A stretch of 64,000 nucleotides of DNA from a virus (lineage: Duplodnaviria > Heunggongvirae > Uroviricota > Caudoviricetes): positions 64,001-128,000 of IMG/VR virus record IMGVR_UViG_3300026549_000033; one strand, given 5' to 3'. Below are positions 5,520 to 43,230 of the stretch, one piece after another. The notes beneath the pieces were generated by a model that was not told the origin of the DNA, did no database searches, and saw only the letters and a list, made by a program, of their open reading frames with translations. Positions within the stretch are counted from its first letter, which is position 1. Each line of letters begins with the position of its first letter. A program made the position numbers and the translations under genes.

Positions 5520-6170
5520 ACTTACAAACGCAGGTACAACTTGGTAAGCACCGAGCTGAAACAAAAAGGGCTTACGACAATTACAGAGGCGACTACATCT
5601 TATTTCAGCATGGCATGGTCGAGAAGTAATCTGATAAAAAAGCGTTGTACACAGACTCCACCTCTCTGTAGTGAAAGTGGAAAACTATAGTTAATGAGGT
5701 TGTTCGGGCTGCTTTCCTCCACCAAAAAGCAGCTTGTCCTAAAGTTTATAGGTAGGAGGGTCCACCTTCAAAGCAAATCCGCGATGGTACTTCAACGGGA
5801 AATTCTCTTGGAGTTGAGATATTCAGAAGCTAAGATACAGGGCCTAAACCTACCCTATAATTAATTGGGATATGAAAAACTTAGAGCTCTTCAGTTTTTC
5901 ATTGAACGACCGCCACCGCAAATGGCGGGATATAAAACGTGACCCTTTTGTTCAGTTTCGCTCACGCAAAATAATTGAAACTGGAGCCAAGTTTACAAGA
6001 AGTGAGACGGGAAAGCATAAGACTGTACTTCAGTACTGCTCAAATGTCCCCTGTGAAGAGAGTCGACTTACTCACAGCACTATACCTATATAGGCGGTCA
6101 TAGGGCTTACAGTGTACCAAAAAACTGAAATAGGTGGTTTTACCCTCGTTTTACATTAAATAATGGGGGG
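5520..6170 (+). ncRNA. Candidate large structured ncRNA (about 650 nt)
   Basis: No credible ORF; crossing 7-bp helices 5534-40/5644-50, 5555-61/5603-09, 5582-88/5664-70 and many hairpins. Confidence 0.55.
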
Positions 6171-7933: not shown

Positions 7934-8686
7934 ATGTCAAAATTAATTTGTGGAGACTGCTTAGAAGTTATACCTAAGCTTAAGAATGAAATAGTAGATT
8001 TGGTTGTTACTTCACCGCCTTATAATGTGGACTTAGGAAATAACAAGTACAACAAAAACCCATATAGTTTATATAAAGATAATAAAGAGCATAAAGATTA
8101 TATAGCATGGCTAAAATCAATCTTTGAAGCCATAACTCCCAAACTTAAAAAAGGCGGAAGAGTTTGTATAAATATAGGTGACGGAAAAAACGGGCAAGTA
8201 CCTACTTCTAACGATATATTCAACTTTATGATAGAAATGGGTTATATTCAGCTTGCACATATTATTTGGGATAAAAGCCAAATCGGGAATAGAACTGCAT
8301 GGGGGAGTTGGTTATCTCCTTCGCAACCAAGTTATCCGTGCCCTTTTGAGCACATTCTAATTTTTGGCAAAGAAACTAAGAAGTTACAAGAAACAGGAGA
8401 AACGGACCTAACCCGTGATGAATTCATTAAATATGCTAATTCTCTATGGACTTTTGCCCCTGAGAATAAAGCTAAGAAAATAGGACATCCTGCTCCGTTT
8501 CCTCCTGAGCTACCTTATAGATGTATTAAAATGAACACCTATATAGGAGGAGTGGTTCTGGACCCATTTATGGGTAGCGGAACTACAGGTGTAGTTTGTG
8601 AACAACTTAATAGAAAGTTCATAGGGATAGAATTAGATCCTGTGTATTTTGATATAGCTCAAAAACGAATAAAGGAGATCAAATAA
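7934..8686 (+). CDS. Beta-class N4-C/N6-A DNA methyltransferase
   Basis: ICGDC, VTSPPY before HPAPFP and VLDPFMGSGTT; start reassigned to ATG 7934 after an AGAGG RBS. Confidence 0.9.
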   Translation: MSKLICGDCLEVIPKLKNEIVDLVVTSPPYNVDLGNNKYNKNPYSLYKDNKEHKDYIAWLKSIFEAITPKLKKGGRVCINIGDGKNGQVPTSNDIFNFMIEMGYIQLAHIIWDKSQIGNRTAWGSWLSPSQPSYPCPFEHILIFGKETKKLQETGETDLTRDEFIKYANSLWTFAPENKAKKIGHPAPFPPELPYRCIKMNTYIGGVVLDPFMGSGTTGVVCEQLNRKFIGIELDPVYFDIAQKRIKEIK

Positions 8687-9321
8687 TGGGAATAGAATAT
8701 TATTTAGTGAAACCTTTAAAGAAGGAAATTTTCTATCTAGGAAAACATTTTTCAGGATTTAGTGAAATCCCTTCTATAGAGTATAAACCTTCCCTTGAAA
8801 GTGCAGATTTCCCAAATTACGAAGATTGGGATGATTTCTTTTGGAATACCTTGAGGGAGAATTGGGAGTACTTTTTGAGTTGTGATTTAACTTTAGAACA
8901 AGCTTCAGACATAATCCATGAAATTTATGAATGGTGTGTATCTGATAAAGTTATATTTGAGCATGACTGTAGTCCAACAGCGCATATATGGGCTGAATGG
9001 AAAGAAACGGGAAGTATTACTACTCTTCTCGAAGAAGCTCATTCTCTTCCGTGCACAGACAATAGTGATCTTATACAAAATTATTTAGAAGAATGCCAAA
9101 GTATAATATTTGAAAACCCGTCTTACAATAAGTCTATAGTTGGAGTTACAACAGACGGCAGAGCTGTTTATGATTATGCCCGTATGATTCAAGAGCTCTC
9201 TAAAGAGGATAACATGACCTATGAAGACGCTGAAGAGTTTATTCAATACAATACTTTAGGAGTGCTACCTCAAGCTGACGAGAAATATCCTGTTATAATG
9301 CACTATGGAGATACTTTATGA
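8686..9321 (+). CDS. Hypothetical protein
   Basis: 211-aa ORF translationally coupled to the methyltransferase. Confidence 0.75.
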   Translation: MGIEYYLVKPLKKEIFYLGKHFSGFSEIPSIEYKPSLESADFPNYEDWDDFFWNTLRENWEYFLSCDLTLEQASDIIHEIYEWCVSDKVIFEHDCSPTAHIWAEWKETGSITTLLEEAHSLPCTDNSDLIQNYLEECQSIIFENPSYNKSIVGVTTDGRAVYDYARMIQELSKEDNMTYEDAEEFIQYNTLGVLPQADEKYPVIMHYGDTL

Positions 9322-14530: not shown

Positions 14531-14599
14531 GGTAAGTGTAAAGGGTAACACCGCAACCCATTACAAAAGTATTAGTAAAGCGGTATTGAGGTAAACAAA

Positions 14600-15220
14600 A
14601 TGGCAACAATCAACATGAAACAAGCAAAAAAATGGGCTACACATTACGGAATCAACTGTCAGCTAATTCCGGGAGCAAGTGAAACAAATTGCAAAGCAGT
14701 TATTTACAACGGCATTAAACACTCAACATCAAACTGGACGGGAATCATGTTCGACTCTTTCTTCGCAGAGATAGCATGCGGGCAAAATGTAGACGGCTCA
14801 AGCGTAGCAAAACAAAAGATAAATGAAGCACACGGCAGAGCCTATGGTGAAAGACTTGTAAACTTCTTGGAACAGTACATGACCTATGCGGATCCATTTG
14901 AAAATATTCAATTTGTTGGGCAAACTTGGATTTCAGTTTTAAATCAATTAGTTGAAAGAGAGATGGATTTTGCTTTAACAGAAGTAAATCAATGGAAAGA
15001 GAGCATGAAAGAATGGCATGCAAACTCTGATGAAGTTGTAGCAAGAATGATTGAAAGCAAGGAAGTAAGAATTTTAAATAATCATGTAATACCATCAAAG
15101 ACCTTTGAAAGATTTTTAATTCAATATTGTAAAGAAAATAATTATACAGTATTGAGTCAAGATAAAATAAATTTAATGATTGATATGTATTGCAAGAGAT
15201 ATCAAGAGGTTATAGGATAG
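14600..15220 (+). CDS. Hypothetical protein, first gene of the early array
   Basis: 206-aa ORF with TGAGGTAAACAAAATG leader. Confidence 0.85.
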   Translation: MATINMKQAKKWATHYGINCQLIPGASETNCKAVIYNGIKHSTSNWTGIMFDSFFAEIACGQNVDGSSVAKQKINEAHGRAYGERLVNFLEQYMTYADPFENIQFVGQTWISVLNQLVEREMDFALTEVNQWKESMKEWHANSDEVVARMIESKEVRILNNHVIPSKTFERFLIQYCKENNYTVLSQDKINLMIDMYCKRYQEVIG

Positions 15221-15496
15221 GGGAAACCCTATCCTACAAGATAAGAGAGGATTTAAAAAGATGAAAAGATTTATTTTAATTTTAATTTTAGTTTTTGTTT
15301 TTATAGGATTTAATGAAGTAAGAAGTTTTAACAATTCAATAGATGAAAGCATTAAAGCATTAAATGATACAGTGCAAGCATGTACAATAGATATGCAAAA
15401 AGATAAAGATTTAATTTGTGATTAAATAACCTTGAATTTTAAATAAAGATATGATATAATAAGAATGTAAGCAAGTTAAGAAATGAGGTAAACAAA

Positions 15497-15793
15497 ATGA
15501 GCAGAAAAATTACAGAGATTATCACAAGAAAATTTATGAATGATGAATGTTACAGATTAAGCAATTCAGAAGTAAGAACAGATTTTAAAACAACAAGATT
15601 ATATTTATTCGGGAATTGCATAGCAAGGAAAGATAAGGAAAGCGGAAAGATTGAAGTAACACTTGCAGGGTATAACACAGCAACCACAAGAGAAAGATTA
15701 AACGGATTACCAAATGTAAGTATACGCAGTAAGAACTTCACCCCATACTTAAACGGACAAGAGATTGACTCTTGTGAATGGTACGCAGTATAA
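15497..15793 (+). CDS. Hypothetical early protein
   Basis: ORF behind a class A repeat. Confidence 0.8.
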   Translation: MSRKITEIITRKFMNDECYRLSNSEVRTDFKTTRLYLFGNCIARKDKESGKIEVTLAGYNTATTRERLNGLPNVSIRSKNFTPYLNGQEIDSCEWYAV

Positions 15794-15806
15794 AAAATTT
15801 AAATCC

Positions 15807-15835
15807 CTTTGCCACCACAGGCAGAGGGATTTTTG
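15807..15835 (+). terminator. Intrinsic terminator
   Basis: AAATCCCTTTGC-loop-GCAGAGGGATTT followed by a T tract. Confidence 0.75.
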
Positions 15836-15856
15836 TTTATAGGGTATTTATTTATT

Positions 15857-15985
15857 CCCACCCCATTAAGATTTAATTCCCATAGAGAGTGCCATCCCAT
15901 TTCGATTGCCTCAGCACTCAATAACTGTAACTGTTTTCGAGGGTTATACCTATATGAAAGTTTTCTATGATTTTGATTTTTAATT
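15857..15985. repeat. About 130-bp non-coding element, copy 1 of 3 (others 18747-18876 and about 23375-23472)
   Basis: Shared blocks CCCACCCCATTAAGATTTAATTCCC, GATTGCCT, GAGGGTTATACC.ATATGAAA, GATTTTGATTTTTAATT. Confidence 0.8.
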
Positions 15986-16200
15986 ATGGGATAAAATAAC
16001 CTTGACAAATTTACATGGGCATGTATATAATAAATATAAATATATTTTTTATATACATGTAACTTTACAAACCTTTACAATAACCTTGCATTTATAAGCA
16101 AAAGCATGTATAATAGAAGTATAAAGAAAACCGAATAAGGAAATGCCTTCCACCTTATCAAATAGTAGAATAAAACGGACGGGCAGAAAAGGATAAAATC

Positions 16201-16539
16201 ATGTTAGAAAATTCAAACTTGTTAACCGGCGCAGTTGCAAAAGAAGTTAACCAACTTATTGAGGACTATGAAGACATCACCGCAAAAGCAAAAGACCTTG
16301 AAACGAGCAAAAAAGCAATATTAAAAAGACTTTTTGAACTAACTCAAACAGGAGTTAACGAAACAAATAAAGTAGTATTTAATATTGTAAATAACAAAGG
16401 CAGAATTTCAATAGCACCATCAAAGTTGCAAGAGCAAGCACCTGAATTATATGGAGTTATCTCTGGCATGGGTTTAGTTACCATCGGCGAGGATTATTTA
16501 ACCGTCAGAGGAATTAAACACAAAGGCAGTAGGACATAA
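16201..16539 (+). CDS. Hypothetical early protein
   Basis: 112-aa ORF with its own promoter and a longer non-class-A leader. Confidence 0.8.
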   Translation: MLENSNLLTGAVAKEVNQLIEDYEDITAKAKDLETSKKAILKRLFELTQTGVNETNKVVFNIVNNKGRISIAPSKLQEQAPELYGVISGMGLVTIGEDYLTVRGIKHKGSRT

Positions 16540-16738
16540 ATTATATTTTGTTTATCTCAATAAAAGAAAAGCCATGCAAAGCCAAGCATGGCTTTTTAGT
16601 TACTCTTATAAATAACCTTGACAAATTTACATGGGCATGTTCTCATAAACAACTTAACAAACCTTTACAATAACCTTGAATTTAAACCGTAAACATGTTA
16701 TAATAAGAATGTAAGATAAATAAATGAGGTAAACAAAC

Positions 16739-17044
16739 ATGGCTAAATTATTAAGACACACTTTAATCGTAGGACTTAACGACAAGGACACTAAAAAACA
16801 AGTCTGCACTTCAAACCACGCAAAAAAGGTTATTATGGACATTGTAGGCGACTGTACTATAACAGACGCAATCGGACACTACACGCATGAAGACGGTTCA
16901 ACAGTAAAAGAAAATTCCATCAAGGTTGAAATGTTATTCAAAGCGGATAATCAAGTTATAGACTATGCAAAGCAAATTAAAAAAGAATTCAACCAGGAAT
17001 CAGTAGCACTTGTAAAAGACTATATTGAAAGCACTCTAATATAA
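16739..17044 (+). CDS. Hypothetical early protein
   Basis: ORF behind a class A repeat. Confidence 0.8.
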   Translation: MAKLLRHTLIVGLNDKDTKKQVCTSNHAKKVIMDIVGDCTITDAIGHYTHEDGSTVKENSIKVEMLFKADNQVIDYAKQIKKEFNQESVALVKDYIESTLI

Positions 17045-17167
17045 TAGAATTCGGCTATGTGCAAGGGTTGAAAAATACCCTTGCATATCCACCTAAAAAA
17101 TAACCTTGAATTTAAAAACAAAATCATGTATAATAAGAATGTAAGATAAATAAATGAGGTAAATAAA

Positions 17168-17368
17168 ATGTCATACGGCTTATATTATGCAAATACTCTT
17201 CAAAAGGAAGAGCCTGAAACAATTAGCATGGATACTGTAAAATTTATTATAAATGACTTAATTAAGAATGATAAAAAAGTATACTATGAAAACATAGGGA
17301 AAGATAAAACACTATTTTCATGGTTAAATGGTAAAGGGACTTCCACAGTTATAATAAAACATGAATAA
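17168..17368 (+). CDS. Hypothetical early protein
   Basis: Class A repeat; stop codon is the TAA of the next repeat. Confidence 0.75.
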   Translation: MSYGLYYANTLQKEEPETISMDTVKFIINDLIKNDKKVYYENIGKDKTLFSWLNGKGTSTVIIKHE

Positions 17369-17434
17369 CCTTGAACACTAAAACAAAATCATGTATAATA
17401 AGAATGTAAGATAAATAAATGAGGTAAACAAAAC

Positions 17435-17749
17435 ATGCTGAAAATACAAAACAAAACTTATTTAACAAGTAATGAAGTATGCAAATATATAGCCTTTTTA
17501 CAAAGGACTTCCAGCGCTTATATATGTATATCTTATAAGAATTATGCAAACTTATTAAGGGAATACACTACACAGGAATACAGACAGGATAATTTTGATA
17601 TAATAAATATAAATAATACTTATTACTATAACTTTATATCTATATATCAATTTTTATTAAGTCTTAATCTAAAGACCTATAAAAGCCACGAAGTTATAAA
17701 AGACCATATTTATACAAGTCTTATGAACTTCAAGGACAATTTAAAATAA
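17435..17749 (+). CDS. Hypothetical early protein
   Basis: Class A repeat; stop codon inside the next repeat. Confidence 0.75.
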   Translation: MLKIQNKTYLTSNEVCKYIAFLQRTSSAYICISYKNYANLLREYTTQEYRQDNFDIININNTYYYNFISIYQFLLSLNLKTYKSHEVIKDHIYTSLMNFKDNLK

Positions 17750-17816
17750 CCTTGAACACTAAAACAAAATCATGTATAATAAGAATGTAAGCAAGTTAAG
17801 GAATGAGGTAAACAAA

Positions 17817-18035
17817 ATGCAAATTGACAGAACTGAAAGTTTAGAACACACAAATTTTAAAATGTTTTTAGCAACAGTAAGAATGTTATCAAACTCACAA
17901 GGATTTTATTCCAGAATGCAAAGGACAATAGATGAATGGACGGATGCAGAATTTGAACAGGCAAGGGAATATTTTAATAATCTTCCGCAAAGGTTCAATG
18001 ACACAGTAGATGTTGTAATGTTCTTAGAGCAATAG
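17817..18035 (+). CDS. Hypothetical early protein
   Basis: Start reassigned to the ATG after the GAGGT RBS. Confidence 0.8.
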   Translation: MQIDRTESLEHTNFKMFLATVRMLSNSQGFYSRMQRTIDEWTDAEFEQAREYFNNLPQRFNDTVDVVMFLEQ

Positions 18036-18114
18036 AAAAAAAAATAACCTTGAACACTAAAACAAAATCATGTATAATAAGAATGTAAGCAAGTTAAGGA
18101 ATGAGGTAAACAAA

Positions 18115-18666
18115 ATGAAATATGAATTTGACGGAATTAGCACAGAGCAATTCAACGAACAGGATAAGGAATTATTCACAGAATACTATGACGGAACACT
18201 AATTGAAAAAGATAATTTCACCGTAGAATTAGATAGTAAAGAAGTAAAATTGCACCTTTATATTGAACACATAGACATGTCAGAATACGAAGACACAGAT
18301 GACCAAATTATATCCATCGGGGTTGTACCAGCTTTTGAAAGTTTATCAGAAAAACATCAACAGGATATTTTAGGACAATTCACAGAAGACGACCAAGAGT
18401 ATTTTAAAAACCACACAGATGAGTTATTGCAAGACTCTATCTCTTATGGGTTCGGGATTACCTTGAGAAGTGAAACTGTAAAGGAAGACGACGTAGAAAA
18501 TAAAATAAATTCAGCAATAGCAGTAAGACACTCAGTATCAGGCTTAATAGGGTTTGAGCTAGATAGATATGTAAACCGTATTGGTAACACAGGATGGGAT
18601 TTCTTAGCTGATTATTGTGAAGACCAAGATTTAATAAAATCAGCTATGGCAAGATTTAAAAAATAA
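18115..18666 (+). CDS. Hypothetical acidic early protein
   Basis: Start reassigned to the ATG after the GAGGT RBS. Confidence 0.8.
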   Translation: MKYEFDGISTEQFNEQDKELFTEYYDGTLIEKDNFTVELDSKEVKLHLYIEHIDMSEYEDTDDQIISIGVVPAFESLSEKHQQDILGQFTEDDQEYFKNHTDELLQDSISYGFGITLRSETVKEDDVENKINSAIAVRHSVSGLIGFELDRYVNRIGNTGWDFLADYCEDQDLIKSAMARFKK

Positions 18667-19000
18667 TTACTCTCTCTCTCTTAACTTCAATTACTTTATA
18701 GGGTACTACTCACCGCAGTAGTACCTCTTTGTTTTGGGTTTTTACTCCCACCCCATTAAGATTTAATTCCCTGTAGAGAGGAGCCAACCCATAACGATTG
18801 CCTACTCCTCAATAATAACTTAACTTTCAGAGGGTTATACCCATATGAAAGATTTGATTGATTTTGATTTTTAATTCCGAGCCTATTTAACCTTGACAAA
18901 TTTACACAGGCATGTTCTATGGATCCATGCCTGTTAATAACCTTGCACATACTTTATAAATCTATTATAATATAAGTATAAAAAGAAAGAGGAAAAACAA

Positions 19001-19267
19001 ATGGAAAATATGACACTTGAACAGGAACTAACGGCAAGAATTTTTGTGCATAAGGTAGCAGTAGTCGGCGGAGTACTTATGAAAGACTATATCGACCGCC
19101 AACATGGTGAAGTAAACTTGCCGGAATTTACAGTAGAAGAACAGGCAGACCAATACTCAAATGAAGTTATCCAAAAGGCTATGGCAGACGGTACTTTTGA
19201 AGACCTATACCACAGAGCATGGGAAAGTATAAAAAACACACTTGACGAAAATACAAAAGTTATATAA
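19001..19267 (+). CDS. Hypothetical early protein
   Basis: ORF behind a TAACCTTG promoter. Confidence 0.8.
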   Translation: MENMTLEQELTARIFVHKVAVVGGVLMKDYIDRQHGEVNLPEFTVEEQADQYSNEVIQKAMADGTFEDLYHRAWESIKNTLDENTKVI

Positions 19268-19336
19268 TAACCTTGAATTTAAATACAAGGTATGTTATAA
19301 TAAGAATGTAAGCAGTTAAGAAATGAGGTAAACAAA

Positions 19337-19702
19337 ATGAAAGTTAAAGAACTTATTAAACAATTACAAGAACTTCCACAGGAAGACGATATTGTTATCA
19401 CGGCTATGGACGACCACTTTTTTGAAACCGAGTTTGAAGTACATAGTCCTTATGAAGACGGACAAGCACAGGAAATTATAATAAATGCCTACATGAGAGA
19501 AGATGCAGTCATCTCAAGAGAAGAACCCGAAGAAGAAATTGTAACTATACAGGACTTATGTAAACTCTTGACGGCTGAAAATTTAGCAGACTTTTTGCAA
19601 GAGTACAATAAATATGTACAGGAATTCCACGAAACACATGACACAGGCTCAACTCCTGTATCAATCATGGAATTTTACAATAATGACTATTTTGAAGTAT
19701 AA
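19337..19702 (+). CDS. Hypothetical acidic early protein
   Basis: Class A repeat; MKVKELIKQLQELP start typical of small phage proteins. Confidence 0.8.
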   Translation: MKVKELIKQLQELPQEDDIVITAMDDHFFETEFEVHSPYEDGQAQEIIINAYMREDAVISREEPEEEIVTIQDLCKLLTAENLADFLQEYNKYVQEFHETHDTGSTPVSIMEFYNNDYFEV

Positions 19703-19864
19703 CCTTGAACTTATAAAAGAAATCTGTTATACTAATAATGTAAGCAGTTAAGAAACGAAGACTAATAGTCGACGGACCGTCGAGCAAGGGGCGTACGGTT
19801 GACGCTAGCAATACACTGTGCGTCCCTCGTCTGTCCAAATTAAGAAAACAAAGAGGTAATAAAC

Positions 19865-20113
19865 ATGAACTTATCAGAATTTTGCAACAGGGTATACAAT
19901 AACTATAACTTATATGGAACAACGGAATGCACAGTAGACAACTACAAGTTAGAAGTTGAATACACAGACGCTAATGAAGAGCACTGGCGTTGCTATGAAA
20001 TCACCTTAACAGATACAGACTATAACAGTGTAATTTTTCAAGGTCACGTAGATACAGATAATAAGGCACTTCTATTCAAACTTATTGAAGCATGTTATTC
20101 TCTAATGAAATAA
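19865..20113 (+). CDS. Hypothetical early protein
   Basis: ORF behind a promoter with an inserted structured leader. Confidence 0.75.
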   Translation: MNLSEFCNRVYNNYNLYGTTECTVDNYKLEVEYTDANEEHWRCYEITLTDTDYNSVIFQGHVDTDNKALLFKLIEACYSLMK

Positions 20114-20184
20114 CCTTGACTCTAAATACAAAATATGTTATACTAATAATGTAAGCAGTTAAGAAATGAAATGAGGTAAACAAA

Positions 20185-20712
20185 ATGACAAAGAAACACA
20201 CAACAATATGGAAATCCTACGGTATGTATGACCTAAAAGAAATGGAACAGGCAGAACAGGATGCAAGAGAACACTTGAAAGAAAATGACTTTGAAGACTG
20301 GGAAACCGTAGATGTTACAGACACTATATATGAAGACATAGACATGTGGTTTGAGGATGAGCAATCCAACTTATTCAGAATACTTGACGGCAGAATTTTA
20401 TGTATAGCAGACATGGGCTTATGGAACGGCAGAAGAACAGGCTACAAAATCTTAGGCAATAACCTTAATGAAGTCTTAACATGTGGAATAGGATGCGACG
20501 AAAAAGAAATCTATTGCGACGCATACAATGTATATGCAACAGGATACCACCACGACGGCAGAAACCATGTAGAATTCAGAGAAATAAGGGAAGACAGAAA
20601 CATTGACAACTTAACAGATAAACTCTATTCAGGCATGCCTGTTACACGCAGAGAAATAAACTACTATACAAAATCTTTAAGACCTTATGTAAAACAAGTT
20701 TACGGAATTTAA
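20185..20712 (+). CDS. Hypothetical early protein
   Basis: 175-aa ORF behind a class A repeat. Confidence 0.85.
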   Translation: MTKKHTTIWKSYGMYDLKEMEQAEQDAREHLKENDFEDWETVDVTDTIYEDIDMWFEDEQSNLFRILDGRILCIADMGLWNGRRTGYKILGNNLNEVLTCGIGCDEKEIYCDAYNVYATGYHHDGRNHVEFREIREDRNIDNLTDKLYSGMPVTRREINYYTKSLRPYVKQVYGI

Positions 20713-20901
20713 TATTTTACCTCATTATATAAAGAGCCATACCCATACAGGCATGGCTTTTCTTTATACCCAAAATAACCTTGACAAATTTACATGGGCA
20801 TGTTCTAATCTTTTCTTAACATTTCTTATAAATAACCTTGAATTTGACATACTTATATGTTATACTAATAATGTAAACAGTTAAGAAATGAGGTAAACAA
20901 A

Positions 20902-21153
20902 ATGACAAACACATTTAAAAACGACAACGGACAGGAATTCAATGTTATTAGTGTATTAGAATTCAACAAGACAGATGCAGACTACTTCAAGAACTCATGG
21001 CAGAAACACAGAGCCATGCTACTTGAAAGAAATCAAGAATATATTGTAGCATCTTATGTTGGTGAAAGCTCATGGGGATATGGCTACTATGCAGACGGCA
21101 TCAAGGACGCAACCAAAAAATTTAATAGTATAATGGCAGACTATACAAAATAA
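20902..21153 (+). CDS. Hypothetical early protein
   Basis: Class A repeat. Confidence 0.8.
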   Translation: MTNTFKNDNGQEFNVISVLEFNKTDADYFKNSWQKHRAMLLERNQEYIVASYVGESSWGYGYYADGIKDATKKFNSIMADYTK

Positions 21154-21225
21154 CCTTGAATTTAAAAACCAAATCATGTATAATAATAATGTAAACAGTT
21201 AAATAAAAGAAATGAGGTAAACAAA

Positions 21226-21714
21226 ATGTTAGTATCAAAAGAAATTTCAGATTTTTACGAATTAAAAGACAATTCATGGTCAGGTGCTTTAGACACTTTA
21301 GCAGACATTGAAAACGCAGGAAAAGAAGACGAACTCATGCAACACTTAGAAGAAGTCTTTGCAGACGGTGAAACACCAACAGAAACCACTGTTAATGACT
21401 ACTTATGGCATGACAGAGAATATGTATATGAAGCACTTGGCTTGACTTCAAACGGTGAAATCCCAACAGAAGTTGACAAAGCAAGAGAAGACAACGCAAA
21501 TTGGCATGTATCTATTACAGAAATTAAAAAGTCAGGACTTTTTGAACAATCTTTAATTGACTACATTATTGATATGATACAGACCGACGAAGACGAAGAT
21601 GGCAATCCTGTATATGACGAAGATGAAACATATTGGATGGACTTTGAAGAATTGGAAAACAATTCAAACGAAGTAACAGAAGACCAAATCGAATGGCTTA
21701 ATGCTAATGGGTAG
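21226..21714 (+). CDS. Hypothetical acidic early protein
   Basis: Class A repeat. Confidence 0.85.
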   Translation: MLVSKEISDFYELKDNSWSGALDTLADIENAGKEDELMQHLEEVFADGETPTETTVNDYLWHDREYVYEALGLTSNGEIPTEVDKAREDNANWHVSITEIKKSGLFEQSLIDYIIDMIQTDEDEDGNPVYDEDETYWMDFEELENNSNEVTEDQIEWLNANG

Positions 21715-21816
21715 AGGATTTCTCTACCCTTTCAAAATAACCTTGAATTTAAAAACAAAATATGTTATACTAATAATGTAAGCAGTTAAGAAACAAAAAG
21801 AAATGAGGTAAACAAA

Positions 21817-22311
21817 ATGAGTTGGACTACAGAATTTTTAGAAAGCAGTGCTTTCAAAGTAAAACACCCAAAGGAAGTAAAACAAGTATTGGAACTTATG
21901 GGCTTTAGTGTTGACACCCATGATAATCAAATTAACTTCTACTCTACGGATAACGAATACTTTGATGAAGACACAGAAGTTGTACTATCTCTAAAGCCTA
22001 TCACAGTTGAGGGAAAAGAAGAACCTACAAATATTATAGGTATTATTTCAGACAGTTGCATGGAAAGTGTGGACCTAGAAGAACTTGAAAAGGACACATA
22101 CATGGTACAATCTATAACAGAATATTTACAGGATGAACTCACAGACGAAAAACAATATATTACTATAATGAATGTTGGCTTTGAGGGAAGAATAAGCGGA
22201 AACTATAACCCTTTTGGTGATTTAACTTTCATAACTAAAAACACTGTGAAATTTTCTTCACTATGGGCAACCGAACAACAATTCAAAAAAGAATGCGGAA
22301 TTACAGAATAA
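21817..22311 (+). CDS. Hypothetical early protein
   Basis: Class A repeat; stop codon inside the next repeat. Confidence 0.85.
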   Translation: MSWTTEFLESSAFKVKHPKEVKQVLELMGFSVDTHDNQINFYSTDNEYFDEDTEVVLSLKPITVEGKEEPTNIIGIISDSCMESVDLEELEKDTYMVQSITEYLQDELTDEKQYITIMNVGFEGRISGNYNPFGDLTFITKNTVKFSSLWATEQQFKKECGITE

Positions 22312-23225: not shown

Positions 23226-23262
23226 ACTTGACAGACTTATAAATATACGATATAATTATAGT

Positions 23263-23336
23263 AGCAGTTGTTTACCTCAATAAACTTAATTGCTAAGAAA
23301 GAGATAGGACTACGGAACCCCTATCTCTTTTGTTTT
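23263..23336 (+). ncRNA. Candidate antisense sRNA against the shared class A leader
   Basis: TTGACA(23228)-17-TATAAT promoter, no ORF, hairpin with CCTCAA loop, two blocks complementary to the class A leader, 11-bp terminator. Confidence 0.7.
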
Positions 23337-23643
23337 GGGATTTTCTGCCACACCCAAGAGAGCCACATTTCGCGAGAAGCCAACCCATCATGATTGCCTG
23401 CTTCTCATATATACTTTAACTTTCGAGGGGTTAAACCTATATGAAAAATTCCTATGATTTTGATTTTTAATTATGAATGATTTTTATATTTGACTTTCCA
23501 AAAGTTATAACCGAAGTTATGGAAATAACCTTGACAAATTTACATGGGCATGTTCTCAGATCCATGCCTGTTAATAACCTTGAACATGCAAGGGTAATCT
23601 GTTATAATATAAATGTAAGCAATAAAGAAATGAGGTACAAACT

Positions 23644-24570: not shown

Positions 24571-25919
24571 AAGTCCTGGGGAAACCCTTTCCCCATAAGG
24601 CTTTGCAACCCCTCAATTCTATATGCTTACACTGGTGAAACCCTCTCTATGAGAGGGTAAAGCCATACGCAATTTCAAAATCAACCTCTGGGGAACCCCT
24701 TGCACCACAAGAGCTTTGCCATAGAATGATTTTTATTTTACACTCTCAAACCCCTGCACCATAAGGATTTCCCCATAGATTTTAACAAAACTTAATTAAA
24801 TTTGATTAAATAATTTGACACACTTTAAAATAGGTGATATAATAAAAAGGCTAAAAATTAAAACTCTCTCTCTTTAAGAAAGCTCAAGAGATATATAATA
24901 TAAAAAGAGCTTTGAAGTCTGTAGTTATCCGCTACAGGCTTTTATATTTATTACATTATAAGAGTAGAAAAACTAAATAAGAGAATATAAGAGTTCTTTG
25001 TCCCTTATTCTTTCTCACTTACTTATCTACTTTTATACTTCGGGATATTTCGTACCCACTCTCTCTTTGTTACACTGGTAGATAGCAAAAGTAAGTGAGT
25101 TTTCTTATATAACCTTGACAAATTTACATGAGCATGTTCTAAAATAACCTTGACTATTATACCTATTTTGTGTTATACTTAATCATATAATGGTTAAGTA
25201 TAACACAAAACGAATTGACCTTACACATAGCACATTATACTATATACATAACACCACACCAACAGGAAGAACCCACTGCATATAACTGCACCTTGCATAA
25301 GTACTGTAAAGCCACGCACCACTCCTCTGACACAGAGAACCTTATGCAACCCCACAGAGCTAATGCAATAGTGCATATATATATACATGTATAAGAGGAC
25401 ACCATGAGAATATGCACGCATATACATATAAGAGGACACCATGAGAATATACATGCAAAATCAAATAAAAGTTATTCCAAAGTACATATTAAATTATATA
25501 GTGTAACAAGAGAAATGTTACGAGCAAACTAAATACAATTACAGAAAGTCCTGAAAACAGGCACAGGGCTTGCTTTTTTATGCCACCGCACCCACTTTCC
25601 CTTACAACCACAGTTACTTTACACTTCTTAATAATCCACCAAAATACACTAATTCCTCACATCTCTCACCCAAATCCCTTGCTATACTTACTATTCCACC
25701 TATTTTATATCTACCCGATATAAACCTTTACAAACCTATCTATTCGATATACCGCATAGATATATCTACCCGATACATATTACCACCACAAGTCTTATCT
25801 ATTCTTAATTTCCATACTTTTCATATATCTACACGATATATCTAAAAGGTACATTCTTTACTTTTCTTCATATTTTATGGGATAATATATTCATACCCCT
25901 TTGACTATACTACATGAAA
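24571..25919. other. About 1.35-kb non-coding interval separating class A and class B arrays
   Basis: No credible ORF; orphan promoter TTGACA 24815; 23-bp direct repeat at 25391/25428; G-poor tracts. Confidence 0.75.
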
Positions 25920-40625: not shown

Positions 40626-41030
40626 ATGAGTACAAGAAGTGATATAATCATTAAAGACTACGGAATTTATGAAGGAAAAACATGGAAAATGCAACAAAAA
40701 CTATACCACCATCACGACGGTTATCCCGAAGGAGTAGGTGCCTTCTTAATCCAAGAAGTCCTTCCGCAATTAGAAAATTCTAATGATGCGTCTTGCGATA
40801 CGATTGCTAATTTTTTGATTAAGCATAAAGAAGATAACGAATTTGAATGCACAGTGTATAACCATGTAGATATTGAATACCGCTACATAATTGATATTCC
40901 AAAGAAAGAAATAAGATGCCTTGAAGGACACTACACAAATTGGAATTCCCCACGAACAAGATTTATAACTGACCGAGAAATTGATTTATCAAAATTCAAA
41001 TCAGTTAAAGCCGAAGAATTATATAAATAA
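40626..41030 (+). CDS. Conserved phage hypothetical protein
   Basis: MSTRS.I...LYHHHDGYPEGVG motif. Confidence 0.75.
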   Translation: MSTRSDIIIKDYGIYEGKTWKMQQKLYHHHDGYPEGVGAFLIQEVLPQLENSNDASCDTIANFLIKHKEDNEFECTVYNHVDIEYRYIIDIPKKEIRCLEGHYTNWNSPRTRFITDREIDLSKFKSVKAEELYK

Positions 41031-41059
41031 CAATGATATTTTAACTCCCAAATTACAAT

Positions 41060-41091
41060 GTTCAGAGCCAAAAGACTCTGAACTTCTTTTT
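41060..41091 (+). terminator. Intrinsic terminator
   Basis: GTTCAGAG/CTCTGAAC followed by TTCTTTTT. Confidence 0.75.
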
Positions 41092-41154
41092 AAATAAATT
41101 TATGATTATATTTTTATAAGTAGAGAGTATGGTTTAAATTAAGAAGGAGAAAGC

Positions 41155-43230
41155 ATGGCTAAAAAAATTGTTGGTAAAAATGGAAAGAAAGAAACTTATT
41201 TTAATAAGTATGTTATAGGTGATAATAATGTATGCCCCGAATGTCATAGACCGTTCAAAGACTATGACCTCAAGAATATTGAAGAAAGAGGTACAATTTC
41301 CTGTGTTAAGTGCGGAGCAAAATTAAGCAGAAAATAACCTTGAACTTTCATATCAAAAGTGGTATAATAAAAGTATAAAAGATACTAAATAGGAGACACC
41401 ACCAATGATGGACACATACTCAGTTGAATATTGGACAACGGACGGCACAAGAGTAGGAGTACAAATTCAAGCATACTCCTCATACGATGCACAGAGATAT
41501 GCAGAACAAATGCCAAACTTTGATATATTGGCATCTTTCCCTGAAAAAATTGCATCAGGCTAAATTTTATTTTAACTCATTTTGTTTTGACAACTCCTTC
41601 CTTTTATGCTACAATTAAGTTGTAAATAGGAAGGAGTTCTTTTATGTTACAATCAAATAGAGAGAAAGAGATATCTAAAGCAGATATGCGTAAAAAAGTA
41701 GAGGCATGGAAAACAATTAACAGTGTTCTTGTGAAAGCTAATGCAGACTACATGAATTCTTTAGCAAGCCTACTTACCGAAAAGCAAGTGCAATTATCAC
41801 AACTTGAAGAAAAGCTAAAAGGTGAGGGAGCTACAGAAGAAGACAATGCAGAGTACTTATTTCAAGCAGGATATACCCAGTGCTTAAAGGATATCTTAAA
41901 TGCCAAGAAAACCACGCAATCCTAAACGAGATAAGCCTTCGAGTAATCCTTTGAATAACTTAGACTTGTCTGCTTTCTTAGAACCCAAAAAAGACACCAA
42001 AACCACCAAAAAAGAAACTTACAAGGGGTTACAAAAAGAATACGAAAGAATTCTCCATAAAGAAATTCAAAGAGAAAATAGAGCCTATAGAGTAGTTTAT
42101 ATGAACCATCCTGAACTACTCTATGTTGCTTTTAGTAGTAACAGGGAAAATGCTAAATGGCAATCAGCAAAGTACTTTAAAGAAACTTTAAATCCGTTCT
42201 TTACTAAAGACAGTTATAATAAAGAAATGATGAATAGCCGTGCCTACAGGGTACAGGAACTTGATAAGTTTGCTTTAAAAGGAGTTATCCCTATCCCTGA
42301 CTTACTACATGCTCTTGACGTTTCTATGCCCTGTTCTGTTTGCGGAAAAGACCATTTTGACTACTCCGACTATGAAAAGGGAAGGTGCTTTATTGTAGAA
42401 GGAGAAGGAAATCTGAACCCTTTTACACAAGGTTATATCTTATGTTACGAATGTCATAAAAAATACTTAGGAAAGAATTAAATAACCTTGAACATGACCT
42501 AAAAATTCTATATAATATAAGTATAGAAACAAACAAAACAGGAGATAAAATGTCATACATCACATCAAATCTTGCTCCTTATCGTAGCAAGGATATAGGA
42601 AAAGAATTTTCAGAAATATTGGCAGAAGACTATGAATGGGTACGCTCCTCTATAGAAGACAGAGGAATAATCTTTTTCTTAGCTACCGTTTCTGTTATGA
42701 CCTTATCTTTACTTAAGGCTATTTCACACGTCATAACTCAAATGCAGAAACCTGTAATGGAATATAATCACTTGAAATTACATAGAGGTATGGAATCTGA
42801 ATCCATTACTCAAATTCTCACAAGGAGAGAGTGCATAGACGAAGTGAAAAACCATGACAATCTATGCCCAAATAATAAGGTTAAAACCGAGAAAGTAGAA
42901 AAACTAAATACTTTGAGAAACTACTTATATCAGCATGACTTAACCCTTCATGCTACCGTACTTAAAACCATAAATCATAAACTCACAGACGACGAGCTTA
43001 TTGAAATGTATAGGTTAGGTGAAATCACTAAACCTTTAACAACTACTCATATCACCTTTGGAGATAACTTAAATCGTCTATTAAAAGATACCTTAGGAAA
43101 TACTATTGATTTAAAAACAAATCGTGTAACAAAAGAAACCTATCTTAGAATTTTCAACGACGATTATATGCCCATCAAAGAAGGATTACAGAATTTATAC
43201 AATGAAAAAGTAAAGCTCAAATTTGACTAA
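41155..43230 (+). CDS. Hypothetical genes 41155-41337 (zinc ribbon), 41405-41563, 41644-41925, 41900-42481 (CxxC pairs), 42550-43230
   Basis: ORFs with RBSs; 41405-41563 (52 aa) is not in the track. Confidence 0.75.

Follow-up and report, generated by a model that had tools for sequence, protein, structure and literature searches.

Organisation of the early gene blocks

The stretch of DNA analysed here, the window, comprises 64,000 nucleotides (positions 64,001 to 128,000 of IMG/VR record IMGVR_UViG_3300026549_000033) and is part of the 195-kb genome of an uncultured rumen-type phage. The early genes are arranged in blocks, and the untranslated 3' tails of these blocks hold mirrors of the ribosome-binding leaders of the same genes (Table 1). 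Within a block every gene is preceded by a promoter of its own and by a near-identical leader, and there is no terminator inside any block, which gives nested transcripts that would all begin with a leader and end with a shared anti-leader. At every block end there are a terminator, a boundary motif and a promoter.

Three of the tails carry the elements called (i), (ii) and (iii). The first-pass annotation had placed each of them directly before a terminator hairpin, and this position was found for all three. The seeds start 2-5 nt after the stop codon and are directly followed by hairpins with U-tracts. Element (i) begins 5 nt past the stop of the 112-aa gene and ends 9 nt short of the terminator stem, whereas (ii) is placed 2-3 nt past the stop codon (20710-20712) of the 175-aa gene. 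A mirror of the class B leaders lies 3 nt past a stop codon (41028-41030) and precedes the only plus-strand terminator of the class B array. The terminator at 15801, which is the first block terminator of the window, is without an anti-leader element.

Table 1. Leaders, 3' elements, terminators, genes and small RNAs (positions in the window)
Feature	Position	Strand	Details
Span of the class A leader cores (TGAGGTAAACAAAATG and close variants), proposed targets	14587..21819	+	
112-aa gene, mRNA carries (i)	16201..16539	+	non-class-A RBS
Element (i), ATTTTGTTTATCTCA, anti-leader seed in 3'UTR of 112-aa gene	16545..16559	+	duplex scan, shuffles
Intrinsic terminator closing the (i) transcript	16566..16600	+	stem 16569-16594
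Element (iii), CU-repeat module (CTCTCTCTCTCTTAACTTC) in 3'UTR of gene 18115-18666	18667..18700	+	
Intrinsic terminator after (iii)	18701..18735	+	hairpin 18701-18726
175-aa gene, final gene of the (ii) block	20185..20712	+	
Element (ii), TTTTACCTCATT, anti-leader seed in 3'UTR of 175-aa gene	20715..20726	+	duplex scan, shuffles
Intrinsic terminator closing the (ii) block	20732..20766	+ (- in one terminator listing)	hairpin 20732-20761
23.27-kb small RNA	23228..23336	+	perfect promoter, ~74 nt, terminator, seed as (i)
24.86-kb small RNA	24815..24945	+	own promoter, CU-repeat seed resembling (iii)
Class B mirror, ATGAT-A-TTTTAACTCC, complement of GGAGTTAAAATCAT	41034..41048	+	
Terminator ending the class B array	41060..41092	+	

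The block boundaries resemble the PeSL (promoter-early/stem-loop) cassettes of T4-type phages (PMC2839356, PMC4122927), in which repeats of a terminator and an early promoter flank small variable genes and mediate shuffling. Here too the terminator and early promoter are repeated, the genes between them are small and variable, and insertions and deletions occur at the repeats; the whole (i) block is missing from one related genome (L062), and the relatives differ in gene content. This likeness describes the setting and not the anti-leader itself. The phages are unrelated, and PeSLs are not known to carry anti-leader sequences.

Searched by megablast, the phage collection had no match to the region, and the 18-nt leader pattern gave single chance matches only in IMG/VR. 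Tblastn with a 771-aa protein found distant phosphoesterase matches only. The 112-aa protein had only weak matches in Pfam and PHROGs, no PDB match at E<=0.001 for its AlphaFold model (pLDDT 80.6), and no relatives in a scan of IMG/VR. No relatives of the 175-aa protein were found in the same kind of scan; its gene has 594 metagenome homologues, and 69 homologues are counted for the 112-aa gene.

Complementarity between 3' elements and leaders

The plus strand from 14.0 to 43.5 kb (29.5 kb) was scanned with RNAduplex against the class A RBS core AAAUGAGGUAAACAAAAUG. The best three sites were element (i), the 23.27-kb RNA and element (ii), in that order. The whole 36-nt leader proved too permissive as a query for a genome scan, with (i) only at about rank 22, and the RBS core was used instead.

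Element (i) pairs over 15 bp (one G-U) with the class A cores, as first described, and the pairing extends to 19 bp in the case of the gene 14600 leader. The duplex with the RBS core reaches -17.7 kcal/mol, and none of 5000 dinucleotide shuffles was as low (p<2e-4). In the whole 195-kb genome it is the sole plus-strand 15-mer with at most one mismatch to the anti-leader, and this mismatch keeps a G-U pair. When 318 start regions were compared as targets of (i), the best 12 were all class A leaders. The RBS of the 112-aa gene is AAAAGGATAAAATC followed by ATG and does not belong to class A, which agrees with the first-pass annotation. Its conclusion that (i) cannot target its own start also holds, in that the own leader offers 7 bp and -7.3 kcal/mol compared with -15 to -21 kcal/mol for class A leaders. 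Element (i) is in this respect a conserved seed complementary to mRNAs other than its parent, like the seeds of 3'UTR-derived small RNAs.

Element (ii) contains an 11-mer (20716-20726) that is the exact complement of AATGAGGTAAA, in accordance with the 11 bp originally noted. Its energy with the RBS core is -13.8 kcal/mol (dinucleotide shuffle p=0.0004). It is less specific than (i): with the whole 3'UTR as query, six unrelated start regions outscore the class A leaders.

The first-pass annotation had proposed that such matches be compared with shuffled sequences. Elements (i) and (ii) withstand this comparison but (iii) does not, since its pairing with the class A RBS core is no better than that of shuffles (-7.2 kcal/mol, p=0.14). 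With the entire leader of its own block (iii) is moderately unusual (-18.6 kcal/mol, p=0.006). The element does exist before a terminator and is conserved among relatives. It is not a class A anti-RBS element; its affinity is to the 24.86-kb RNA, which has a CU-repeat seed.

The class B mirror beats shuffles (p=2e-4). Its motif TTTAACTCC has a single plus-strand occurrence in the window, before the class B terminator, while there are 21 GGAGTTAAA leaders. Beyond the window, comparison of class B was restricted to the only copy found in IMG/VR, which is 99% identical.

The 23.27-kb RNA shows two-helix pairing with class A leaders and is found in all relatives. Its near-identity to (i) was borne out, with TTGTTTAYCTCAATAAA common to both, and its layout of seed and hairpin loop is copied in (i). 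No promoter was found directly upstream of (i), (ii) or (iii) in the window, where no internal site was better than 8/12.

Conservation and covariation among related phages

In eight genomes, exact matches to the reverse complement of the leaders were compared with matches to the plain complement. There were 24 versus 3 matches of at least 11 nt and 12 versus 0 of at least 13 nt, and nearly all of the reverse-complement matches lie between a stop codon and a terminator or in homologues of the 23.27-kb RNA. A reversed leader was unsuitable as a control, being A-rich like the leaders, and the plain complement was used.

Elements (i) and (ii) are kept in related contigs of ruminant-gut phages despite differing terminator hairpins. 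Element (i) is unchanged in four genomes (the window, L105, L108 and L118) although the proteins are about 72-79% identical and the hairpins differ; it is absent downstream of the 112-aa gene in L113 and L117. Element (ii) is retained in every genome where the 175-aa gene ends a block, and is conserved and co-varies with the leaders in 10 genomes. The changes can be followed in pairs of leader and element: GTTGAGGT with ACCTCAAC in L114, GGAGTAAAT with ATTTACTC in L117, the leaders GAGAATTTA and GTAAAACAAAAG with the element TAAATTCTC...CTTTTGTTTTAC in L116, AATGAAAGAGGTAAAT with ATTTACCTTATTTCATT in L112, and a two-part TTACCTCAT+AACTGCTT in L118.

For the element behind the 175-aa gene, pairing with the cognate leaders is stronger than with non-cognate leaders (-15.2 versus -11.2 kcal/mol), and 0 of 50,000 permutations were as good (p<1e-4), a value that overstates independence because the compared genomes are kin. 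A coarse cross-genome matrix of 11-mers does not separate the cognate combinations (3.6 sites on average on the diagonal versus 2.9), since the genomes have leaders and T-rich tails in common. Within genomes the preference is slight. Among 93 block ends, leaders of the own block are better targets by only -0.6 kcal/mol (Wilcoxon p=0.04), and for (ii) some other leader is the best target in about half of the cases.

Selection for pairing between element and leader is well supported by these comparisons, because the elements are conserved amid variable flanks, co-vary with the leaders and have a counterpart in class B.

Proposed mode of action and relation to known systems

Given their conservation and their joint change with the leaders, the mirrors probably damp early translation by RNA pairing. 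The elements are accordingly read, with a probability of roughly 0.55, as selected anti-ribosome-site RNA modules. They lie after the stop codon of the last gene and before the terminator that the transcripts of an early block have in common. By base-pairing with the start region and its Shine-Dalgarno sequence, the 3' element would lower initiation and probably also mRNA stability.

How each element would reach its target may differ. In folds of full transcripts the seed of (ii) is paired to the 5'-proximal leader with a probability of 0.95 and 0.94, and the values for the class B element and (iii) are 0.84 and 0.78. Element (i) is paired with its own RBS with a probability of only 0.26. These are equilibrium predictions that ignore ribosomes and folding kinetics. 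Intramolecular 5'-3' closure on the 5'-proximal leader would be the most likely mode of (ii) and the class B element and, with less clarity, of (iii), although closure across up to 15 kb, as in the class B array, is doubtful. For (i), closing on its own RBS in cis was rejected as the main mode. Its own gene has a different ribosome site and its layout copies the 23.27-kb RNA, so that it would have to act either in trans, with class A leaders as targets and that of gene 14600 as the best of them, or on read-through transcripts. The first-pass annotation had proposed 3'UTR-derived antisense RNAs with negative feedback on the whole class A bank. The leader pairing in this proposal is upheld by conservation and covariation, whereas the predicted closure of (ii), (iii) and the class B element on the leaders of their own transcripts would be cis control of the icaR type and not bank-wide feedback.

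Pairing between 5'-UTR and 3'-UTR has been described for icaR mRNA in Staphylococcus aureus (PMC3868564) and for hbs mRNA in B. subtilis (PMC5737220). As in icaR, a pyrimidine-rich anti-SD motif in the 3'UTR would pair with the ribosome site of its own mRNA, with less initiation and duplex-dependent decay as the predicted outcome. Both (ii) and the class B element have a 3'UTR motif complementary to the SD region of the same transcript, and (iii) has one in part; (i), on a monocistronic transcript, does not match its own mRNA. The phage elements also differ from icaR in that one 3' element would serve nested co-terminal transcripts all starting with the same repeated leader, and in that they occur in leader-class-specific versions in a lytic-type phage genome. 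Repression by anti-SD-like 8-mers that lie hundreds of nt downstream and pair with the RBS has been described in B. subtilis (Gill et al., bioRxiv 2025, PMC12697547). The likeness would lie in a far-downstream anti-SD-like sequence with cis pairing to the RBS, a block of initiation and faster decay; native genes avoid such sequences according to that study, while the phage keeps extended versions (11-19 nt) at a fixed place. No clear depletion of anti-SD-like k-mers was seen in the early coding sequences.

The c4 antisense RNA of phages P1 and P7, a processed RNA located upstream, has a single target operon and controls immunity. It is similar in that a phage RNA made from the transcription unit of its target masks a phage ribosome site by pairing, but the elements described here are 3'-terminal and would address many leaders. 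Class-wide shut-down of early mRNA through ribosome sites is known from T4, by the translational repressor RegA and the endoribonuclease RegB (review PMC3014915). RegA and RegB are proteins whereas the effector here would be RNA, and no homology is implied.

It is also conceivable, but unlikely, that processing releases all three elements as stable 3' fragments, which would serve as trans-acting small RNAs and give negative feedback across the class A bank. This would suit (i), with its twelve best targets among class A leaders, its mismatch to its own RBS and its resemblance to the free-standing RNA, and the seeds are unpaired or in a loop within short 3' fragments. Small RNAs derived from 3'UTRs are common in bacteria; CpxQ, SroC and DapZ are base-pairing examples and IpeX is prophage-borne. 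The phage elements share the location of these RNAs, being in an mRNA 3'UTR and using its intrinsic terminator, and (i) fits a conserved seed just upstream of the parent terminator that is complementary to ribosome sites of other mRNAs. They would, however, target the phage's own early genes and not host genes. Release by internal transcription is opposed by the lack of a promoter above 8/12 upstream of any element, and no processing site can be inferred. Furthermore, (ii) offers only 11 bp and six unrelated start regions score above the class A leaders when its whole 3'UTR is the query, (iii) is not significant against the RBS core, and in the predicted folds of full-length transcripts cis pairing already takes up the seeds of (ii), (iii) and the class B element. 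A homologue of (iii) is on the other hand free-standing in L109.

Very unlikely is a role as read-through insulators, in which the element would pair with the leader that opens the next block, but solely on transcripts running past the terminator, so that downstream genes would be translated only from their own promoters. A class A leader does follow within about 175 nt after (i) and (ii), and in L105 (-18.9 kcal/mol) and L118 (-17.4 kcal/mol) this following leader ranks with the best targets of (i). In the window, however, every other class A leader is a stronger target of (i) than the next one (-15.1 kcal/mol), the (ii) family has no preference for the next leader, and the gene after the class B element has a different RBS.

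The idea that the elements have no function, as inverted leader scraps from cassette recombination or chance matches in AT-rich DNA, agrees with the shuffling of cassettes (the (i) block and gene content vary) and with the low complexity of the A- or T-rich leaders and terminator tails, but is already disfavoured and the least probable of all, given the shuffle and complement controls, the fixed place between stop codon and terminator, the constancy of (i) next to varying coding sequences and hairpins, and compensatory changes in distant genomes, since scraps would decay and not track the leaders.

Pairing of UTRs as in icaR and small RNAs from 3'UTRs are already known, and the phage arrangement is a variation on them. 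If the pairing is functional, a few short RNA motifs would be enough for a large phage to exert post-transcriptional control over dozens of early genes with separate promoters, which would explain the near-identity of the cassette leaders. It would also join 3'UTR-5'UTR closure and 3'UTR-derived small RNAs, which have been studied separately in bacteria, and would show both forms trading places with free-standing small RNA genes within a single virus lineage. The natural relatives, with their covarying leaders and elements, amount to a ready-made set of compensatory mutants.

A wider and more tentative suggestion is that this family of ruminant-gut phages of about 195 kb times its early programme by a distributed RNA system, in which the genes of a bank share a leader and class-specific anti-leader modules would silence the bank at its ribosome sites; this if true would be an RNA counterpart of T4 RegA/RegB. 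Some modules would possibly sit at the common 3' end of nested transcripts and others be free-standing small RNA genes. With the same reservation, leaders and anti-leaders might co-evolve and modules might switch between the 3'UTR and the independent-gene form. Interchange of this kind is indicated by the homologue of (iii) in L109, which has its own promoter, and by the seed that (i) has in common with an RNA transcribed from a promoter of its own.

Anti-leader elements at the ends of early gene blocks

The window corresponds to positions 64001-128000 of one contig, which is 195,221 bp long with 34% G+C, and tRNA genes and one tmRNA gene are found at 3-7 kb of the window. From 14.5 to 43 kb the + strand carries about 50 units, in each of which a small gene stands behind a sigma-70-like promoter of the AATAACCTTGA type and a short leader. 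There are two leader classes: class A, with 14 copies of the core AATGAGGTAAACAAAATG at 14.6-21.8 kb, and class B (AAAGGAGTTAAAATCATG), which spans 25.9-40.4 kb. The early genes are grouped in blocks of nested, co-terminal transcripts because terminators are rare in this array.

The first-pass annotation described three anti-leader candidates, (i) to (iii), and each is indeed at its given coordinates, with a stop codon before it and a terminator hairpin behind it. Element (i) is the sole + strand 15-mer in the genome at no more than one mismatch from the anti-leader. When the + strand from 14.0 to 43.5 kb was scanned for duplexes with the class A RBS core, the top sites were (i) at -17.7 kcal/mol, a free-standing RNA with its own promoter at about 23.27 kb (-16.9) and (ii) (-13.8). 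Element (i) outperforms dinucleotide shuffles of its 3'UTR at p<2e-4, and (ii) does so at p=4e-4. The gene preceding (i) has, as claimed, an RBS outside class A, and the likeness of (i) to the 23.27-kb RNA holds in that the seed and loop display are repeated. Of 318 start regions, the 12 that (i) targets best all belong to class A leaders, headed by gene 14600 with 19 bp.

A fourth case was found for class B. The sequence ATGAT-A-TTTTAACTCC, complementary to GGAGTTAAAATCAT (shuffle p = 2e-4), is located 3 nt past the stop codon at 41028-41030, where the class B array ends, and is followed by the sole + strand terminator of that 15-kb array. On the window + strand TTTAACTCC occurs once, at this array end, versus 21 GGAGTTAAA leaders, so that anti-leader and array agree in leader class. 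A second T-rich stretch nearby shows complementarity to the unit 33873 leader (14 + 9 nt flanking an internal mismatch) and overlaps a TTGACA-N17-TACAAT promoter at 41587; no terminator follows this stretch.

The proposed class A match of (iii) fails against the RBS core (p=0.14) and is moderately unusual when the complete leader of the block it belongs to is the target (p=0.006). The element is conserved in the relatives L105 and L106, and in L109 its homologue is free-standing with a cassette promoter upstream. Its CU-repeat seed resembles that of another RNA with its own promoter, at 24.86 kb, which every relative has. In the genome, both find their best complements in AG-repeat ribosome sites of genes that lie outside the early region, such as AAAGAGAGAGAGAGG. 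Its conservation and these complements argue that (iii) is a real module, yet not one to be classed as a class A anti-RBS element. The seed of the 24.86-kb RNA is kept as far out as L116 and L117, the most distant relatives. In the terminator of (iii), the 3' half with the U-tail (18722-18735, TACCTCTTTGTTTT) forms a 14-nt exact complement of the gene 19865 leader (AAAACAAAGAGGTA), exceeding every complement-control match (maximum 12).

Positions of the features (window coordinates unless a relative is named)
Feature	Position	Strand	Remarks
Element (i)	16545-16559	+	3'UTR of 112-aa gene 16201-16539
Element (ii)	20715-20726		3'UTR of 175-aa gene 20185-20712
Element (iii)	18667-18700
Second RNA candidate	24815-24945	+	perfect TTGACA-N17-TATAAT with TG; CU-repeat seed CTCTCTCTCTTTAAG; terminator 24914-24942
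Second T-rich stretch	41567-41592		past stop 41561-41563
Boundary motif AACCTTGACAAATTTACATGGGCATGTTCT	15998, 16614, 18889, 20777, 23527, 25111		~30 nt each
~150-nt repeat	15835-15990, 18730-18880, 23335-23475		directly after terminators ending in TTTGTTTTGGG
tRNA-like piece, L108	about 9000-9130		after gene 8131-8769
tRNA-like piece, L113	about 5944-6080		after gene 5812-5943

Conservation and covariation in relatives

The relatives are ruminant-gut metagenome assemblies, several of them contigs of 192-200 kb; a nucleotide search of a phage collection and tblastn with a 771-aa protein found no cultured relative. Twelve usable loci were obtained from 594 homologous proteins for the 175-aa gene and 69 for the 112-aa gene. 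Element (ii) is retained wherever the 175-aa gene is the last of a block, while spacers and hairpins vary. Element (i), TTTTGTTTATCTC, is unchanged in L105, L108 and L118, where the 112-aa proteins are ~72-79% identical and two different hairpins follow the element. It is absent behind the 112-aa gene in L113 and L117, and in L116 its position is taken by CCTTTGTTTTA, which is complementary to the TAAAACAAAGG leaders of L116 itself.

Exact reverse-complement matches to own leaders in 8 genomes number 24 at a length of at least 11 nt versus 3 in a plain complement control, and 12 versus 0 at 13 nt or more. Nearly all those of at least 11 nt are found either in homologues of the 23.27-kb RNA or at most a few nucleotides past a stop codon, with a terminator soon after.

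Leader differences between genomes are paralleled by compensating differences in the elements.

Leaders and corresponding elements in five relatives
Relative	Leader	Element
L114	GTTGAGGT	ACCTCAAC
L117	GGAGTAAAT	ATTTACTC
L116	GAGAATTTA and GTAAAACAAAAG	TAAATTCTC...CTTTTGTTTTAC
L112	AATGAAAGAGGTAAAT	ATTTACCTTATTTCATT
L118	both conserved leader halves matched, as by the 23.27-kb RNA	two-part, TTACCTCAT + AACTGCTT

When the 3'UTR behind the 175-aa gene was paired with the leader of that gene in 10 genomes, the mean energy was -15.2 kcal/mol for cognate and -11.2 for non-cognate pairs. In 50,000 permutations the cognate pairing was never equalled (p=3e-4 without near-duplicates), p-values that are generous because the genomes are related. 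Complementarity in such distant genomes would not survive neutral drift.

Mode of action and known systems

The component parts here are of known kinds: 3'UTRs that pair with an SD, small RNAs derived from 3'UTRs, and antisense RNAs of phages, of which c4 is one. The systematic, class-matched anti-leaders at common 3' ends of phage cassette arrays are new; so would be their co-evolution with repeated leaders and an apparent interchange of 3'UTR-embedded and free-standing forms. Literature searches on small RNAs of phages and 3'UTRs, and on pairing between 5' and 3'UTRs, revealed no phage with this arrangement, at which they were not aimed. The initial observation of anti-leader elements is largely confirmed and its interpretation as antisense feedback partly supported.

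A promoter search found no internal promoters upstream of the elements. Partition-function folds of full-length transcripts predict that the (ii) seed pairs with the 5'-proximal leader (P 0.95 in the one-gene and 0.94 in the three-gene transcript), the class B seed with the 40360 leader (0.84) and (iii) with its own 5'UTR (0.78). These predicted folds fit icaR, where the 3'UTR pairs with the SD of the same mRNA (PMC3868564), and anti-SD-like words in B. subtilis that repress in cis from far downstream (PMC12697547). The nested transcripts of a block would share a leader at the start and an anti-leader at the end, a layout that suggests a simple logic with both on every transcript. For (i), predicted pairing with its own RBS is only 0.26. 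Because its top targets are class A, its energy against its own gene's leader is -7.3 kcal/mol and its seed and loop are those of the 23.27-kb RNA, (i) is expected to work in trans, or else on read-through transcripts. Overall, the elements prefer leaders of their own block only slightly (-0.6 kcal/mol, p=0.04), and action in cis and in trans is inseparable by sequence alone.

Block boundaries, repeats and other genes

The boundary motif follows every block terminator, ahead of the first cassette promoter, and is kept in all relatives. It holds the near-palindrome ACATG-NN-CATGT, is extended at 15998 to a perfect TTGACA-N18-TATAAT promoter, and could serve as an operator or as a weak promoter of the block. 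The ~150-nt repeat (CCCACCCCATTAA ... GATTGCCT ... GAGGGTTA.ACC.ATATGAAAGATTT ... GATTTTGATTTTTAATT) is found after terminators in every relative. L062, about 70% identical, lacks the whole (i) block 16032-16613 (promoter, 112-aa gene, element and terminator), and the neighbours are joined at the boundary motif, which is consistent with cassette gain or loss through recombination at repeats.

The 112-aa protein is predicted to form a 38-residue helix and a small beta domain (pLDDT 80.6), a model with no PDB match at E<=0.001. The 5'UTR of its gene has a conserved hairpin, ATAAGG...CCTTAT. Two relatives carry intergenic tRNA-like pieces with GGTTCGAGTCC T-arm motifs behind cassette promoters.
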